Shown here piece by piece: positions 30,579 to 40,720 of a DNA stretch of 64,000 bases; positions within the stretch are counted from its first letter, which is position 1, and every line of letters starts with the position of its first letter. A program made the translations under genes and the position numbers. The notes beneath the pieces are model-generated. The model saw nothing but the letters and a program-made list of their open reading frames with translations, did not search any database and was not told where the DNA came from. Source of the DNA: a phage; sequence record PZ445521.1, one strand, 5' to 3'.

Positions 30579-31052
30579 TTATTTGAACGATTTAACGTAC
30601 TGAATAGAACCTTTACTATTCACAAAGGCAATTTTACCATTTTTGTTATACATGGTAGCAGTACGTTGATAGCCATAAGTTTGTTTACCAGATTGATAAC
30701 CAACTAATGCAAAATTATCTTCGCCCATTTTATTCTGTTTAGCGCGGATGCGTTCATGACCATGTGCCATAAGAACCTTAGCATCACCGGTTGCAATGGA
30801 TCGACGAGTTTTTTCATCTTCAACTGTATTAACAAAGTCGTCAAATGAATCAAATTTAGCATGAGATTTATTATACAGTTTTCCATCTACTGCATAATTA
30901 TATCCCTGTACATCCATCTCAACTTCTGTACCATCATCCAATACAGCAGTGATTTTTTGACCTTTTTTAAATTTCAAAAGATCAGTAAAAGATTCAGCAA
31001 TAATTTGAGAATTAATAGCTGCTTCAGTGATAAATTCTTGATATGTTTTCAT
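30579..31052 (-). CDS. internal (head-packaged) protein candidate with capsid targeting sequence
   Basis: 157 aa; N-terminus MKTYQEFITE; next to denV. Confidence 0.6.
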   Translation of the reverse strand: MKTYQEFITEAAINSQIIAESFTDLLKFKKGQKITAVLDDGTEVEMDVQGYNYAVDGKLYNKSHAKFDSFDDFVNTVEDEKTRRSIATGDAKVLMAHGHERIRAKQNKMGEDNFALVGYQSGKQTYGYQRTATMYNKNGKIAFVNSKGSIQYVKSFK

Positions 31053-31068
31053 ATGATTCCTTTAATTT

Positions 31069-31386
31069 TTATTCTTTAGGAAAATTTTTAGAATATGCGT
31101 CGTAAAGCTTATTTCCAATACGACGAAAAACTCTAGCTGCAAAACGATTTTCTGGGTTTTTAATCATAATTTGCATCATATAAGTACCCGCGTCTGAAAG
31201 AGCTTCTTCATAGTACCCGTTAATTTCTTTAAGAGTCCTACGTTTACCACCAGGACCATCAACAGTGATTTTCCATTTACCTGTAGAAGTGCGACTCGGC
31301 GGCTCAACTTGTTCAATCCAAATATAACCGCCTTCTACACGTTGTCCTGCAGCAGATTCTGCAATAAATTCTTGATATGTTTTCAT
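31069..31386 (-). CDS. internal (head-packaged) protein candidate with capsid targeting sequence
   Basis: 105 aa; N-terminus MKTYQEFIAE. Confidence 0.6.
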   Translation of the reverse strand: MKTYQEFIAESAAGQRVEGGYIWIEQVEPPSRTSTGKWKITVDGPGGKRRTLKEINGYYEEALSDAGTYMMQIMIKNPENRFAARVFRRIGNKLYDAYSKNFPKE

Positions 31387-31395
31387 ATGTTTCCT

Positions 31396-31812
31396 TTAAA
31401 TGTAAATATTTTTACCGTAATACTTATACCAATGTGGTTTCATTAAAATTTTTTCATCAAGTCGTTGTTGACTCAATTTAATAGCTGATTTGCATGGATT
31501 ATAATCATTTTTCCATTCTACTGGAATATCGCTGATGTCAGGAACTTCAGTATCTTTTATACTGAACCCTCGTTTTAAGCATTCCGTTATAATGTCTGAT
31601 TGACGCTTTCGCAAAAATTCTAACTTATCGTAAAAGAACGTGACATGACCAGAACCTAAAATAAACTCGGAAGATATTTTAAAATCTTTAACGCGCTTAC
31701 CGTTTGCCACATGCTTACGAACTATACCAAAAACACGTGGCAATTCACGGTATTCTGCGATTAAATGTTGATCAGCAAGTTCAGATACTAAAGTCAAATT
31801 AATACGAGTCAT
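31396..31812 (-). CDS. denV: Endonuclease V (pyrimidine dimer DNA glycosylase)
   Basis: 138 aa, N-terminal [12 protein letters not shown]; adjacent to lysozyme gene. Confidence 0.8.
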
Positions 31813-35286: not shown

Positions 35287-35335
35287 AGTATTTCCTTAGG
35301 TTGATTAAGATTTAAAATCCGTGAGAGTATTATAC

Positions 35336-35512
35336 TCCGGATAGTTTGTAAACTATTTCAACATCGCCTTTTGCTGCTTTATAACCTTCAGCCCAAGATA
35401 TAACCGAGTTTTTATCTGAAGATTCAAATTCTGGCATTGGGCTTTCGCCAATGTTCACGCAGTATGTTTCTTCATTTTCGTCGAACCAAATAATTAAAGT
35501 AGTCATTTATTT
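35336..35512 (-). CDS. hypothetical small protein (58 aa)
   Basis: Hand-translated ORF MTTLIIWFDENEE...; below ORF-track cutoff. Confidence 0.3.
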
Positions 35513-35574
35513 CTCCGTTTCTGTATTTGTTTTGATAAGTCTATAATAACACCGTCCTTGGTGTTTGTACACAA

Positions 35575-35838
35575 TTATTTCATATTATTGAAATATTCTT
35601 CTGCGATTTCGTCGTTATCATGGTAAACTTTAGAAGACAGTTTAACATAACCTTCAGCAGTGAACATATTAATCACAACCTTTACAGTATACCACTGACC
35701 ATCTTCATTACCCATTACTGCGTAAGTTTCAAACATCGGATGGTCAGGACCGATAACTTTAATATCATTCACTGTACGACCAAAATCTTCTGAAACACAT
35801 TTCATAAAGAAGTTGAACAGTTCGCCGTAATTATCCAT
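35575..35838 (-). CDS. hypothetical protein
   Basis: ORF 35575..35970; start moved to Met45 (MDNYGELF, GGAGAA upstream) because the N-terminal codons read through the promoter-like element. Confidence 0.5.
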   Translation of the reverse strand: MDNYGELFNFFMKCVSEDFGRTVNDIKVIGPDHPMFETYAVMGNEDGQWYTVKVVINMFTAEGYVKLSSKVYHDNDEIAEEYFNNMK

Positions 35839-35869
35839 TTCATTCTCCAAGTTGTTTTTCTGTATCAGT

Positions 35870-35930
35870 AGTTGATAGTTGTATAGTACCATGGAAGAAT
35901 AGGGATGTAAACAGTTTTGTGAAAAATTTT
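35870..35930 (-). promoter_or_regulatory. T4-type early promoter-like element
   Basis: GATAGTTGTATAGTACCATGG block, GTTTAC hexamer (35907..35912), AAAACTGTTTTGTGAAAAATTTTT block. Confidence 0.5.
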
Positions 35931-36040
35931 TTAAAAAGTTTTGGGGGAATTCTAGGGCAGGGAGGGGCAATTAAAGGATAGGATAATATATTATAAAGGA
36001 TAGAAACTAAATGATGCCTAGAGAGGCCCGGAAAGGCCTA

Positions 36041-36064
36041 GATACCAAAAAGCCCCAACCTTTT
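36041..36064 (-). terminator. intrinsic terminator hairpin (copy 1 of near-identical pair)
   Basis: agccccaacc-tttt-ggtcggggct, 10-bp stem with one mismatch, U-run follows on minus transcript. Confidence 0.55.
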
Positions 36065-36081
36065 GGTCGGGGCTAAGAATG

Positions 36082-36555
36082 TTATTTGATTTGTTTAGCA
36101 GACCAAATGCGGTCTTTAATAATTTTTTGGATGTCTTCAACATACTCAAGAGAGTGAGCATGTGGGTTATCTTTGAAACTATAAGCACGAGCTAGCTTTT
36201 GGCCTTCAGTTTTGATTACTAAAAGCTCTTTAAGGATAGCTTCATATTTGGAGATAATTCCTTTAACAATATTTTTCTCTTGTGTAGCTTTAGGATCTGC
36301 TTTAGGAGCAGGTTTACCTGAAGCCTTTGCAAAAGCAGCTCCAGTAGCAACTAAACTTTTCCAGGCCATACTAACTGCATTTCCCGTAAATCCTTCCGCT
36401 TTCATGTCGCGTGCGAACTGGAATCGCGATTCATCAGAAGCATCTTTATAAGAATATTTACCCGCTGCAATGGCTGCTTTTGCGACAGCTTGAATTTCGG
36501 TGCTAGATGCTTCATTTAACACCGCTTCATTTAAAAATTGAGCATATGATTTCAT
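36082..36555 (-). CDS. internal (head-packaged) protein candidate with capsid targeting sequence
   Basis: 157 aa; N-terminus MKSYAQFLNE; Ala/Lys-rich; late-promoter motif upstream. Confidence 0.55.
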   Translation of the reverse strand: MKSYAQFLNEAVLNEASSTEIQAVAKAAIAAGKYSYKDASDESRFQFARDMKAEGFTGNAVSMAWKSLVATGAAFAKASGKPAPKADPKATQEKNIVKGIISKYEAILKELLVIKTEGQKLARAYSFKDNPHAHSLEYVEDIQKIIKDRIWSAKQIK

Positions 36556-36591
36556 CTTATTTCCTGTTTTAATTCGTGGTTTTAATATACT

Positions 36592-36599
36592 TATTTATA
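36592..36599 (-). promoter_or_regulatory. late promoter motif TATAAATA (minus strand)
   Basis: forward tatttata about 40 nt upstream of ORF 36082..36555 start. Confidence 0.45.
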
Positions 36600-36605
36600 C
36601 TAAAA

Positions 36606-36629
36606 AGCCCCAACCTTTCGGTCGGGGCT
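36606..36629 (-). terminator. intrinsic terminator hairpin (copy 2 of near-identical pair)
   Basis: agccccaacc-tttc-ggtcggggct followed by U-run on minus transcript. Confidence 0.55.
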
Positions 36630-36680
36630 AAGCCTTGCGGCAACCTTGTCGGGGTTCCACCTGCTAAGGCAAGTGTTTGT

Positions 36681-36772
36681 ACGAAACGCCGGGATTCGAA
36701 CCCGGTTATTAAGCAGTTGACGCTACTCAATATTTTTAAAAGGCCATATCTCGACCATATCCGAACGTTCCG
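36681..36772 (-). ncRNA. tRNA-like element (possible degenerate tRNA or small stable RNA)
   Basis: 7-bp acceptor-like pairing (cggaacg/cgtttcg) and canonical T-arm ccggg-TTCGAAT-cccgg, but about 44 nt between D-region and T-arm without a recognisable anticodon arm. Confidence 0.3.
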
Positions 36773-36940
36773 TCAAAAACGCTACTCGGCTTACGGCAAA
36801 GATATTTCCTCGAATCGATAATTCGGTGCGCCGTTTCTGCTGTGATATAAGGGGACATTAACAAAACATAAAGATTTATTAATGCCAGTCCTTAAACAGG
36901 GAACATCAGTCCGACGACTTACCGGTAGCGACCCGGTTTC

Positions 36941-37288
36941 TTATTCTGACATATAATAAAGTTGCTCACGTCGTCTACGCCATAAATTAATTGCTTCATG
37001 AGCACATTCAGCGTTCAGGATAGGACGACAATAATATAACGACTCACGTTTTTGGAACCGATGCTGCAATGGGATTTCATTTAAAAGGTCTTTACGATCA
37101 AAGTATTCGTAACCATCTAAACCTACTGAACGATTTTTAATAAACTTCCAATGGCCGAATTCATTCTGAATATAAATGTAATCAGCGTGTTGGTATAATG
37201 CCATAATCTCACGGTCAGAAATAGCTGTTTCATGTTCGTTAAAATAAAACGTTAAATCATGTACTACTAAGTAAACATTACCTTTCAT
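36941..37288 (-). CDS. hypothetical protein
   Basis: 115-aa ORF immediately downstream of tRNA cluster. Confidence 0.5.
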   Translation of the reverse strand: MKGNVYLVVHDLTFYFNEHETAISDREIMALYQHADYIYIQNEFGHWKFIKNRSVGLDGYEYFDRKDLLNEIPLQHRFQKRESLYYCRPILNAECAHEAINLWRRRREQLYYMSE

Positions 37289-37306
37289 ATTTTCCTCACT
37301 TATAAT

Positions 37307-37382
37307 TGGTCGAGGCAGTAGGGATCGAACCTACGACCTAGGACTTAGAAGGTCCTTGCTCTTCCTTCTGAGCTATGCCCCG
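37307..37382 (-). tRNA. tRNA-Arg (anticodon UCU)
   Basis: Hand-folded cloverleaf: acceptor cggggca/tgcctcg, D-arm TAGCTCAG, anticodon loop cu-UCU-aa, T-arm GGTTCGATCC, encoded CCA. Confidence 0.8.
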
Positions 37383-37386
37383 TAAT

Positions 37387-37462
37387 TGGGGTGACCGATG
37401 GGAGTCGAACCCATGACTACGAGAATCACAATCTCGAGTTCTACCAACTGAACTACGGCCAC
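37387..37462 (-). tRNA. tRNA-His (anticodon GUG)
   Basis: Cloverleaf: anticodon stem cgaga/tctcg, loop uu-GUG-au, T-arm atggg-TTCGACT-cccat, discriminator C, encoded CCA; no encoded G-1. Confidence 0.65.
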
Positions 37463-37576
37463 ATTAATACCTACTCCAACAATCAAGATGTCTTCACACG
37501 AAATTAAGAGAAGAGTGATCAGTTCAACCCCTATAATCGCGTCAAGTAGATATTAATGTGACAGTTGTCACAAATT

Positions 37577-37651
37577 TGGCGGACGTGATAGGATTCGAAC
37601 CTATAACCAATCGCTTAACAGGCGATCGCTCTACCATTGAGCTACACATCC
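37577..37651 (-). tRNA. tRNA-Asn (anticodon GUU)
   Basis: Cloverleaf: anticodon stem atcgc/gcgat, loop cu-GUU-aa, T-arm atagg-TTCGAAT-cctat, encoded CCA. Confidence 0.65.
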
Positions 37652-37655
37652 AAAT

Positions 37656-37742
37656 TGGTGGGGAGTGGTGGAGTCGAACCACCCGAGTCGCAATGACAAT
37701 GAATTTACAGTCCACACCGCTACCTCTACGGGATAACTCCCC
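37656..37742 (-). tRNA. tRNA-Tyr (anticodon GUA), long variable arm
   Basis: 87 nt; anticodon loop cu-GUA-aa, T-arm ggtgg-TTCGACT-ccacc, acceptor ggggagt/actcccc, encoded CCA. Confidence 0.6.
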
Positions 37743-37754
37743 TAATTCATAATT

Positions 37755-37829
37755 TGGTGGCCCTGGGTGGAATTGAACCACCATCTGGCGATTATGAGTC
37801 GCTTGCTTGAACCTTCCAGCTACAGGGCC
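37755..37829 (-). tRNA. tRNA with CAU anticodon (Ile2 or Met)
   Basis: anticodon loop cu-CAU-aa, T-arm ggtgg-TTCAATT-ccacc, acceptor ggccctg/cagggcc, encoded CCA; Ile/Met identity undetermined. Confidence 0.65.
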
Positions 37830-37830
37830 T

Positions 37831-37906
37831 TGGTGCTGATTGACGGAATCGAACCGCCGACGTCCTCATTACAAGTGAGTTGCTCTACCTACTGAGCTAA
37901 ATCAGC
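37831..37906 (-). tRNA. tRNA-Thr (anticodon UGU)
   Basis: anticodon loop cu-UGU-aa, D-arm TAGCTCAGTAGGTAGAGC, T-loop TTCGATT, encoded CCA. Confidence 0.75.
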
Positions 37907-37912
37907 AAAAAC

Positions 37913-38002
37913 TGGCGGAGGCGATAGGATTTGAACCTATGAGTCGCCGGAGCGACTGCCGGTTTTCAAGACCGGTGCATTAAACCACTCTGCCACGCCT
38001 CC
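37913..38002 (-). tRNA. tRNA-Ser (anticodon UGA), long variable arm
   Basis: 90 nt; anticodon stem ccggt/accgg, loop cu-UGA-aa, long variable arm, T-arm atagg-TTCAAAT-cctat. Confidence 0.75.
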
Positions 38003-38004
38003 AG

Positions 38005-38078
38005 TCTCCATACAAGGATTTGAACCTTGGACCTCCTGATCCCAAATCAGGCGCTCTACCAAACTGAGCTACACGGAG
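38005..38078 (-). tRNA. tRNA-Pro (anticodon UGG), CCA not encoded
   Basis: anticodon stem cctga/tcagg, loop uu-UGG-ga, T-arm caagg-TTCAAAT-ccttg; 3' terminus lacks CCA. Confidence 0.75.
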
Positions 38079-38088
38079 TAAATTAAAT

Positions 38089-38162
<74 letters not shown>

Positions 38163-38167
38163 AAATT

Positions 38168-38254
38168 TGGTGCGAGAAGTGGGACTCGAACCCACAAGGA
38201 AATCATTCCGCAGCATTTTAAGTGCTGTGCCTTTACCAATTTGACCATTCTCGC
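38168..38254 (-). tRNA. tRNA-Leu (anticodon UAA), long variable arm
   Basis: 87 nt; anticodon stem cagca/tgctg, loop cu-UAA-aa, T-arm gtggg-TTCGAGT-cccac, encoded CCA. Confidence 0.75.
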
Positions 38255-38255
38255 G

Positions 38256-38328
38256 CTGGGAATAAAGGACTCGAACCTTTGCATCCTGGAATCAAAATCC
38301 AGTGCCTTACCAACTTGGCTAATTCCCA
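38256..38328 (-). tRNA. tRNA-Gln (anticodon UUG), CCA not encoded
   Basis: acceptor tgggaat/attccca, anticodon stem ctgga/tccag, loop uu-UUG-au, T-loop TTCGAGT; 3' end abuts tRNA-Leu. Confidence 0.75.
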
Positions 38329-39100: not shown

Positions 39101-39286
39101 CTATTCACCTTTAGAAATTTTATCCATAACGACAGCAATTAAACCAATTAAAAATGCTACTACAAGTGAAAACACATTTTCTGCTGTAGTTAATAATCCA
39201 CATATAAATCCAACAAACATTGAAAAACTAAAAGCAGAAGCAGAAATTGCAATAGCAACATTTCGAATTAATTCACAGCGTTTCAT
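39101..39286 (-). CDS. hypothetical small membrane protein
   Basis: 61 aa, two hydrophobic segments; downstream of promoter-like element. Confidence 0.5.
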   Translation of the reverse strand: MKRCELIRNVAIAISASAFSFSMFVGFICGLLTTAENVFSLVVAFLIGLIAVVMDKISKGE

Positions 39287-39302
39287 TTTATTCTCCTCAG
39301 TA

Positions 39303-39350
39303 GTTGATAGGGTAATAGTATCACTACCCTATCTAAAAGTAAACTCATTT
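39303..39350 (-). promoter_or_regulatory. T4-type early promoter-like element
   Basis: GTTGATAGGGTAATAGTATCACTACC block and GTTTAC hexamer (39339..39344). Confidence 0.45.
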
Positions 39351-39578
39351 TTTACGAAAAATTGATTTATTTTCTGCTGCCCATTTTTCAATAACTGCAA
39401 CCGGACCAGTAACAACAATTTTATCACCGTAATCTTCTGCGGCGAGTTGACCGAAATTATCTAATGCATCACGAAGAACTCCATGAGGCATTTCACCCAT
39501 TTTATCTTTCTTGCCAGTGTAAATAAACTCAACTTTTACATCAGAAGATTCAGCGATAAATTCTTGATACGTTTTCAT
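39345..39578 (-). CDS. small internal (head-packaged) protein candidate with capsid targeting sequence
   Basis: ORF 39345..39596; start at MKTYQEFIAE gives 77 aa. Confidence 0.55.
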   Translation of the reverse strand: MKTYQEFIAESSDVKVEFIYTGKKDKMGEMPHGVLRDALDNFGQLAAEDYGDKIVVTGPVAVIEKWAAENKSIFRKK

Positions 39579-39603
39579 TTTATTCTCCAATTTCACATTT
39601 GTT

Positions 39604-39660
39604 TTGATAGGGTAATAGTATCACTACTAAAACCCCGTGTAAACAACTTTGTGAAATTGT
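39604..39660 (-). promoter_or_regulatory. T4-type early promoter-like element
   Basis: GATAGGGTAATAGTATCACTAC block, GTTTAC hexamer (39639..39644), CACAAAGTTG upstream block. Confidence 0.45.
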
Positions 39661-39663
39661 TTA

Positions 39664-39951
39664 TTACAAAAGATTTTTAGCAATAATCTTGAGATGTGCT
39701 GCAGAAATGTGTTTAGCTTTAAACAACGCAGTTTCTTCGGCAGGAGAGATAACGATTGTAGCACCATCCTTTTTAGCAGACCACCCATCACCTAGGTAAA
39801 CAGTACCTTTGATTTCTTCGCCATCAACCAGACTAATCATTGGTTTACCTTCTCGTCCTTTATTTGCTTTAATAACTTCAGAAGTAAGAGTAGCTTCGGT
39901 AATGGTAGAAACCGGGGTAGTTGTAGAAGTAAATTCTTTAAATGTTTTCAT
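39664..39951 (-). CDS. ipI: Internal protein I-position protein (capsid targeting sequence)
   Basis: 95 aa (T4 IPI length); N-terminus MKTFKEFTS; adjacent to 57B as ipI is in T4; identity by position and size. Confidence 0.5.
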   Translation of the reverse strand: MKTFKEFTSTTTPVSTITEATLTSEVIKANKGREGKPMISLVDGEEIKGTVYLGDGWSAKKDGATIVISPAEETALFKAKHISAAHLKIIAKNLL

Positions 39952-39972
39952 TTTATTTTCCTAATTAATTTT

Positions 39973-40020
39973 GATGAGATAATAGTATCACTACCTCATC
40001 AGCATGTAAACAACTTTGTG
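39973..40020 (-). promoter_or_regulatory. T4-type early promoter-like element
   Basis: GATGAGATAATAGTATCACTACC block and GTTTAC hexamer (40006..40011). Confidence 0.45.
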
Positions 40021-40023
40021 AAA

Positions 40024-40720
<697 letters not shown>

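Follow-up and report, generated by a model that had tools for sequence, protein, structure and literature searches.

A terminator-flanked module with a putative late promoter, encoding a candidate internal protein, at the rnaC–e.8 junction of T4-like phages

The 64,000-nt stretch of phage DNA considered here (record PZ445521.1; the whole stretch is called the window below) carries, between rnaC (species 1 RNA) and a homologue of the T4 gene e.8, a small gene that we call X. The gene lies between two copies of a terminator-like repeat, has its own putative promoter of the late type, and probably encodes an internal protein, that is, a protein packaged in the capsid and injected with the DNA. 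The 2.1 kb around it (35300–37400) match Shigella phage JK38 (MK962755, genus Tequatrovirus) at 100% and hundreds of other T4-like phages at 92–98% identity. The minus strand carries every gene in this part of the window, and transcription runs from high to low coordinates. In that direction, the elements of the X locus are as follows.

36597..36632, minus strand: repeat copy B, an intrinsic terminator resident at the end of the tRNA/rnaD/rnaC transcription unit (hairpin 36606–36629 with a GAAA loop, then a U-tract at 36601–36605)
36592..36599, minus strand: TATAAATA, the T4 late-promoter consensus octamer, with 36 nt between octamer and ATG
36560..36565, minus strand: Shine-Dalgarno-like AGGAAA, read from the sequence, 4 nt upstream of the ATG
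36082..36555, minus strand: gene X, an open reading frame (ORF) for a candidate internal (capsid-packaged, injected) protein of 157 aa; phrog_2280 (function unknown)
36042..36077, minus strand: repeat copy A, terminator for X (hairpin 36051–36074 with an AAAA loop, then a U-tract at 36046–36050)

The first-pass annotation of this DNA had described two 24-nt hairpins that differ only in the loop and bracket ORF 36082..36555, and both statements hold. The pattern AGCCCCAACCTTTYGGTCGGGGCT has exactly two matches in the 64 kb, at 36051–36074 and 36606–36629, and a single loop base is the sole difference between them; with up to three mismatches allowed, the pattern had no match in 100 dinucleotide-preserving shuffles. 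The duplicated DNA is longer than the hairpin. It forms a direct repeat of 36 nt (36042–36077 and 36597–36632), of which 34/36 positions are identical (94%), spaced 555 nt apart around the minus-strand ORF, and copy B lies some 50 nt beyond the 3′ end of rnaC.

Both copies are intrinsic-terminator-like hairpins, and on the minus strand only. The minus-strand RNA of each forms a perfect 10-bp stem that includes one G·U pair and seven G-C pairs, closed by a 4-nt loop and followed by UUUUU, so that a G+C-rich stem-loop stands directly before a U-tract on the transcribed strand. The two copies fold at −19.5 kcal/mol (z = −4.5) and −20.3 kcal/mol (z = −4.2), and no shuffled sequence folded as well. 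In plus-strand RNA the G·U position becomes an A·C mismatch and there is no T-run after the stem; the hairpins are therefore one-directional terminators for the strand of the ORF, and a bidirectional function, which we considered, was rejected on the same grounds. Independent annotators have called terminators at the same sites in the records of G50, Lutter, PhAPEC2 and Aplg8. Further, a natural stem variant, GACC to AGCC, shifts the G·U pair by one position and leaves the minus-strand stem intact, which points to selection on the RNA.

The late-promoter octamer that had been placed about 40 nt upstream of the start codon is also there. It overlaps the final 3 nt of repeat copy B, its distance from the hairpin is constant in all 13 of the X-carrying Tequatrovirus loci examined, and the record of phage Lutter has a promoter annotated at the corresponding position. 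The predicted transcription start of X lies near 36586. The reading frame is conserved as well: of the 512 phage records with a homologue of X, 468 have it intact, and dN/dS (the ratio of nonsynonymous to synonymous rates) between X and its homologues is 0.05–0.15. X is therefore a real gene.

If the repeats mark the ends of an exchangeable module, as the first-pass annotation supposed, then close relatives should differ at exactly these points, and the comparison of T4-like genomes that it proposed was positive. We dissected 23 loci base by base, and all counts of states, junctions and order given here rest on these. (Occupancy estimated from the lengths of BLAST spans was dropped, as indels in the flanks, at e.7 and at an ORF between rnaD and tRNA-Arg, confound the spans.) In T4 the interval from rnaC to e.8, 284 bp long, is free of ORFs and has the hairpin just once. 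To the left of this copy is the e.8 leader (ggtatctaagcc...), as it is beside copy A in JK38; to its right is the 3′ trailer of rnaC (...ttgccgcaa), as it is beside copy B. Six of the 23 loci (T4, T2, RB10, G2540-3, SHFML-26 and ELT1) have this empty state, with one hairpin, no gene and the flanks arranged as in T4. Seven have X only (JK38, RB51, Lutter, Aplg8, SYGD1, phiD1 and one IMG/VR contig), three have a different gene, Y, only (HY03, CT01 and the Mosigvirus RB69), and seven have X and then Y (G50, Kelasse, PBM-1, SH-1, the Mosigvirus PhAPEC2 and two IMG/VR contigs). X precedes Y in every two-module locus.

These arrangements follow one grammar, which in the sense of the genes reads rnaC ... 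GGCTT-hairpin-TTTTT, then module X, then module Y, then ggtatctagg... (the e.8 leader). Module X runs from (a/g)gTATAAATA through the 157-codon ORF to aacattctt, the same hairpin and TTTTT. Module Y begins with agtttgaatcac, contains an ORF of 187 aa, and ends with aataatttt, a different hairpin (AAATCCCTATC-TAAAT-GATAGGGC) and TTTT. Across the 23 loci, all junctions fall immediately after GGGCTTTT(T), that is, at the hairpin/U-tract. Thus, X sits in a terminator-flanked, promoter-equipped single-gene module that is exactly present or absent at the repeat, behind which a second module can stack. The earlier description of a self-contained promoter-gene-terminator cassette with repeated ends needs one correction: the module is indeed bracketed by repeats, but the upstream hairpin is not borne by it, being the resident rnaC terminator in every relative examined. 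The repeated ends themselves are real, and had already been recorded by the annotators of RB51.

In a wider set of 818 records, the hairpin is found at one to three places per genome. A systematic sample of 50 T-even-type records contained 35 with at least two hairpin matches (~70%), and the empty state of T4 and T2 is therefore the minority. A scan of IMG/VR for the hairpin returned five contigs only, too few for a survey. In Klebsiella phages KP15, Roth41 and others there is a 33-nt, 88%-identical match to the hairpin at or inside a gene for a “baseplate wedge subunit”; the KP15 record annotates it as a terminator, and the match may reflect either a terminator that arose by convergence or mere chance.

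Module Y, which is present in 165 phage records, lacks an exact TATAAATA in G50 (2843–2935 of the locus sequence), HY03 and RB69 and carries AATAAATA 38 nt ahead of its ATG. We searched the DNA upstream of X and of Y for a sigma-70 promoter or a middle promoter of the MotA type and found nothing convincing. In RB69 (AY303349; 1395–1957 of the locus sequence), module Y is annotated as two overlapping ORFs, RB69ORF148c and RB69ORF149c. The RB69 DNA aligns with the intact 187-codon Y of other phages, and this record therefore contains a frameshift or a sequencing error.

The distribution of the four states is incongruent with the phylogeny of the flanks. In neighbor-joining trees of either flank the states are intermixed, and tree neighbors include JK38 (X) with RB10 (empty), ELT1 (empty) with CT01 (Y), and SHFML-26 (empty) with a ZN18-like contig (X and Y). 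Therefore, the locus has changed state, or has been exchanged, repeatedly. From X to empty, and from X and Y to Y only, the difference is exactly one repeat unit plus X. Loss of X would thus be a matter of homologous recombination or replication slippage between the terminator copies, recreating the arrangement of T4 and T2, and X would be gained by the same reaction run backwards, or when a mixed infection permits a double crossover in the conserved flanks.

The same data could be read with no role for the repeat in recombination. In this alternative the hairpins are simply two terminators under selection, the X/Y polymorphism is spread by ordinary homologous recombination in the rnaC/rnaD and e.8 flanks between co-infecting T-even phages, and whole alleles are swapped; breakpoints then fall at the hairpin only because the homology between alleles starts and stops there. 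T-even phages recombine heavily, their flanks here are 90–97% identical across hundreds of genomes, and scattering of the states over the flank trees is what swapping would produce. The hairpin repeat is, moreover, restricted to the X locus and not dispersed as are PeSLs, the stem-loop elements with early promoters that are discussed below, and module Y ends in another hairpin, with about 9 nt in common with the rnaC terminator. Swapping, however, accounts for the spread of the states but not for their origin. That the arrangements differ by precisely one repeat unit and X is what a crossover between repeats leaves behind. In addition, the stem variant shifts between the two copies: Lutter and one IMG/VR contig have CAGCC in the copy next to rnaC, SYGD1 and PBM-1 have it in the distal copy, and the distal copy of RB51 has a related variant, TAGCC. 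We therefore consider allele swapping the main rival, although a doubtful explanation when taken by itself. It is compatible with crossover between the repeats, and we regard both processes as acting together.

A more elaborate possibility is that a dedicated, structure-specific recombination system recognizes the hairpin, in the manner of integron attC sites or of the mini-circles of PeSLs, and that through it cassettes of internal-protein (ip) genes are excised and integrated as small circles. All junctions do lie at the same hairpin/U-tract point, the order X then Y is constant, and PeSL mini-circles have been shown experimentally in RB49 and phi1 (PMC2839356). But no recombinase is associated with the locus, a genome has just one to three copies of the hairpin, and a 36-nt direct repeat suffices for homology-driven deletion with no dedicated system. 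We find this possibility improbable and prefer recombination through the repeat itself.

What does the module deliver? The first-pass annotation named X an internal-protein gene, and several features of the protein agree with this. Mutational work summarized in PMC9026906 shows that the first ten residues are enough for packaging, with residues 4 and 7 (Y4 and F7 in IPIII) controlling targeting and residues 8 and 10 controlling processing, and that the prohead protease gp21 cleaves after L/I-x-E. The leaders of X (MKSYAQFLNE/AVLNE/A) and Y (MKTYAEFLTE/A) agree in sequence with all of these rules; the leader of T4 IPII and IPIII is MKTYQEFIAE/A. X has Y4, F7, L8 and E10, and its gp21-type motif, L8-N9-E10/A11, is followed by a second, duplicated one, L13-N14-E15/A16. 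A scan of all ATG-initiated ORFs of at least 50 aa in the window for ^MK[ST][YF].[EQDK]F found five, namely X, two ORFs of the ipI locus and two of the ipII/ipIII locus (30579–31052 and 31069–31386); the motif of the capsid-targeting sequence (CTS) is thus restricted to X and the ip loci. A BLASTP alignment of X with Y covers the 11-residue leader only. Such confinement of the similarity to the leader matches the pattern described for ip genes, in which the CTS is conserved and everything else is diverse (PMC3012670). Both proteins fall in phrog_2280 (“unknown function”) in PHROGs, but with alignment of the leader only we do not take this as homology of the mature parts, and we rejected the idea that X and Y are paralogues. 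Like internal proteins, mature X is small, basic and rich in lysine, with an isoelectric point (pI) of 9.5–9.6 and 20 Lys in 142–147 residues; the pI values of T4 IPI*, IPII* and IPIII* are 9.0–9.65. Finally, g140 of Yersinia phage phiD1 encodes a protein identical to X at 156/157 positions, and Gp140 was flagged PPAP (particle-associated) in purified virions by LC-MS/MS (Table S3 of PMC8309999), whereas the products of the neighboring genes g138 and g139 were not. From these features, X is probably a capsid-packaged, injected internal protein.

Some further observations concern the protein itself. Residues 1–15 of X (36511–36555, minus strand) contain a tandem duplication of five residues, FLNEA-VLNEA, which creates the two potential gp21 sites. 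Homologues without this duplication have a single LNE/A or LTE/Q, and in SYGD1, PhAPEC2 and others the leader is a single ten residues, MKSYAQFLNE/AS. An AlphaFold2 model of X (predicted local distance difference test score 76.8) is all-helical, with a three-helix N-terminal domain, a PAPKADPK linker and a long helical hairpin. A search of 5.8 billion proteins found 14 relatives of X, all unnamed or hypothetical. T4-like phages of Klebsiella (e.g. KpV477, 1341–2030 of the locus sequence) and Yersinia encode proteins of 177–178 aa that share only the N-terminal domain of X (AGKYSYKD..ESRFQF..GF) and have a different C-terminal half; the gene again lies just downstream of a tRNA cluster. The joining of this N-terminal domain to another C-terminal half suggests domain shuffling within the family.

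X could instead be a late cytoplasmic accessory protein that is not packaged, its CTS-like N terminus being due to common descent of the 5′ end or to chance, and the detection in phiD1 to carry-over contamination. The particle-associated list of phiD1 spans 41–49% of the gene products, the mature region of X has no similarity to known internal proteins, the locus lies outside the two recognized ip loci, and the leader shares just five of ten positions with MKTYQEFIAE. The positions that are important experimentally, however, are all there (Y4, F7, L/I8 and E10, then a small residue), the leader motif is limited in the 64 kb to ip-locus genes and X, and the leader of the adjacent module Y is closer still, with seven of ten positions identical to MKTYQEFIAE. 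The basic, lysine-rich composition resembles that of internal proteins, and a late promoter suits a component of the prohead. We thus think an unpackaged X unlikely and return to the internal protein as the probable identity.

The explanation that we favor joins these parts: a module composed of a late promoter, a ribosome-binding site, X and its own terminator, inserted right after the U-tract of the resident rnaC terminator, would deliver a late-made, packaged anti-defence protein and would be gained and lost through recombination at the repeat. As a whole, we give this a probability of roughly 0.7. The upstream terminator would insulate X from early and middle transcription of the tRNA operon, and X would be transcribed from TATAAATA late in infection, during prohead assembly. 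The 10-residue leader would bring the protein into the prohead (scaffolding) core, where gp21 would cut it after E10 and/or E15, and mature X would enter the capsid along with the DNA, to be injected into the next host. There, by analogy with T4 Ip1–Ip3, its most likely action would be to neutralize a host defence, e.g. a type IV (GmrSD-family) restriction enzyme. An anti-defence role would explain the patchy and rapidly reshuffled distribution of X.

Several points weigh against this explanation. First, recombination at the repeat is read from end states. Second, the canonical ip genes occupy two other loci and use early promoters with stem-loops, and internal-protein genes are absent elsewhere in T-even genomes according to Arbiol et al. 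(PMC2839356). Third, mature X has no detectable sequence or fold similarity to any known internal or anti-defence protein: Pfam gave no match, a sequence profile search of the Protein Data Bank (PDB) gave a spurious repeat-protein match only, and Foldseek with the X model found nothing significant in the PDB and only its own family in BFVD. All database records of X that we examined, and all those of Y, say hypothetical. Fourth, the particle-associated list of phiD1 is permissive, with 113–137 of 277 gene products flagged (PMC8309999), and we therefore count the flag on Gp140 as supportive but not decisive. Fifth, TATAAATA is not enriched in the AT-rich window (12 found versus 10.7 expected), so that its value as evidence lies in its fixed position directly after the hairpin and not in its frequency. 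Sixth, Mosigvirus copies of X carry only AATAAATA, not TATAAATA; in these copies, as in module Y, AATAAATA may be a one-mismatch late promoter.

The rearrangement of modules has precedents in these phages. Shuffling at the ip loci was reported by Repoila et al. (1994, as summarized in PMC2839356, PMC4122927 and PMC12373910) and was generalized to PeSL and PmSL elements, in which a stem-loop with an early or a middle promoter, respectively, flanks small ORFs at the boundaries of indels (Arbiol et al. 2010, PMC2839356; Comeau et al. 2014, PMC4122927). Like the ipI and ipII/ipIII modules, X and Y are small, nonessential and highly variable, and encode products with a common leader of about ten residues that are otherwise unrelated; gene content likewise varies between close relatives, and the gene is bracketed by repeated regulatory DNA. 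X differs in its position: recognized ip genes lie in 57B-ipI-trna.4 or e-ipIII-ipII-denV, whereas X lies between rnaC and e.8, a third locus that is not listed in the literature surveyed. Assignment by locus is, however, a positional convention from the literature and not a functional requirement. X also differs in its repeat, a G+C-rich intrinsic terminator rather than an AT-rich stem-loop overlapping an early promoter, in the late TATAAATA type of its promoter, and in the annotation of its product, as of that of Y, as hypothetical.

The relation to PeSLs and PmSLs is similarly mixed. As in these elements, a stem-loop leads straight into a promoter, after which come a ribosome-binding site and the beginning of a small accessory ORF; the element sits at boundaries of insertion, deletion or replacement between close relatives; and tandem copies flank single ORFs, so that recombination between copies would delete the ORF. 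The promoters of PeSLs, however, are sigma-70-like and early and those of PmSLs are MotA middle promoters, whereas at the X locus the putative promoter is of the late type and has no −35/−10 pair. Further, PeSLs and PmSLs occur as many dispersed copies in hyperplastic regions, in contrast to the two copies of the X hairpin in 64 kb, a local duplication of one terminator. The X cassette thus lacks two defining features of PeSLs yet behaves like them at indel boundaries.

The gene and its repeat have been noticed before. RB32ORF132c and RB51ORF140 (GenBank NC_012635) are the same gene at the same locus, with 98% amino acid identity to X, and in the RB51 record a note on this gene reads “flanked by 34 bp imperfect direct repeat.” Neither a function nor a connection with internal proteins is given there, and empty sites are not compared. 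Our literature search found no paper on X or Y, RB32ORF132c or RB69ORF148c/149c, and the paper on fPS-65/fPS-90 contains no proteomics. In function the nearest comparison is with T4 Ip1, Ip2 and Ip3, each of which inhibits a distinct GmrSD enzyme (PMC12373910). X has the leader, basic composition, predicted late availability and patchy distribution expected of an injected counter-defence protein of this kind; unlike similarity in those respects, there is none in sequence or fold of the mature part, and the anti-defence role is proposed by analogy only.

A bolder form of the explanation would make the rnaC terminator a dedicated landing pad, a hairpin-guided, integron-like hotspot at which late cassettes for injected anti-defence proteins are captured, stacked in fixed order and excised in a structure-dependent way rather than by plain homology. 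We attach little credence to it. Were it true, T-even phages would have a third, specialized “arsenal” locus, and X and Y would disarm defences not covered by Ip1–3.

The surroundings of the locus are those of a T-even phage. Along the direction of transcription the order is ipI, a second ip gene, homologues of trna.4, trna.3 and trna.2, eleven tRNA genes, a 115-codon ORF, rnaD, rnaC, the X locus, e.8 and e.6, with the following coordinates.

39664–39951, minus strand: ipI (Pfam IPI_T4)
39345–39578, minus strand: second ip gene of the ipI locus (phrog_8111, “internal virion protein”)
38328–37307, minus strand: eleven tRNA genes (ARAGORN)
36825..36944, minus strand: rnaD (species 2 RNA), upstream context; 105/119 nt identical to annotated T4 rnaD
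36680..36818, minus strand: rnaC, upstream context, whose terminator is the one duplicated; 137/139 nt identical to annotated T4 rnaC
35883–35911, minus strand: early-type promoter of e.8, TTTACA-17-TACTAT (promoter scan)
35575..35838, minus strand: e.8 homologue, downstream neighbor; 257/264 nt identical to T4 e.8

The tRNA cluster at 37307–38328 has eleven genes versus eight in T4, and the homing endonuclease gene segB is not present. A gap of 114 nt between tRNA-His (37387–37462) and tRNA-Asn (37577–37651) is unannotated. Rfam returned tRNAs only, with no family for the hairpin or for rnaC/rnaD; at its gathering threshold it found 10 of the 11 tRNAs, and tRNA-Tyr (37656–37742) comes from ARAGORN only. 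Between rnaD and tRNA-Arg, a place that is empty in T4, lies the 115-codon ORF (36941–37288, minus strand; phrog_3355, RB69ORF150c-like), a further indel of the tRNA region; a few of its bases overlap the mapped 5′ end of rnaD.

The two recognized ip loci of the window carry repeats of their own. In the ipI locus (39250–40100) there are three copies of a 41–66-nt repeat, at 39304–39344, 39604–39644 and 39971–40011 (repeat region 39304–40029); on the minus strand it comprises an early promoter (GTTTAC...TACTAT) and an overlapping stem-loop, the published PeSL-like element of ip loci. The equivalent of the ipII/ipIII locus (30579–31411) has two ORFs with a CTS, one of 157 aa (phrog_3155, internal virion protein) and one of 105 aa (phrog_3966, “unknown function”), which share a 61-nt, 82%-identical repeat over the ribosome-binding site and leader-coding DNA (31017–31411). 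The 105-aa ORF looks like an unannotated internal protein.

In general, the X locus is a further instance of a known evolutionary device of T-even phages, of which the flanking repeat and the shuffling of modules were already on record. What it adds is modest: a putative third locus for internal proteins, at which two candidates for injection would be insulated by duplicated terminators and expressed late, and of which we found no description in the literature. It extends the published idea of stem-loop-mediated gene shuffling to the combination of a terminator with a putative late promoter. Internal proteins are the payload that T-even phages inject to disarm host restriction, and all three of those in T4 block different GmrSD enzymes (PMC12373910). 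X and Y are unannotated candidates for this class that are missing from the laboratory models T4 and T2; they occur in ~500 and ~165 sequenced phages, respectively, many of which were isolated on clinical or pathogenic Escherichia coli, Shigella and Yersinia. If the rnaC–e.8 junction is a third ip locus, it would offer two candidates for screens of host range and anti-defence activity, and the site may serve as a natural, insulated insertion point, predicted to be expressed late, for engineering packaged cargo.

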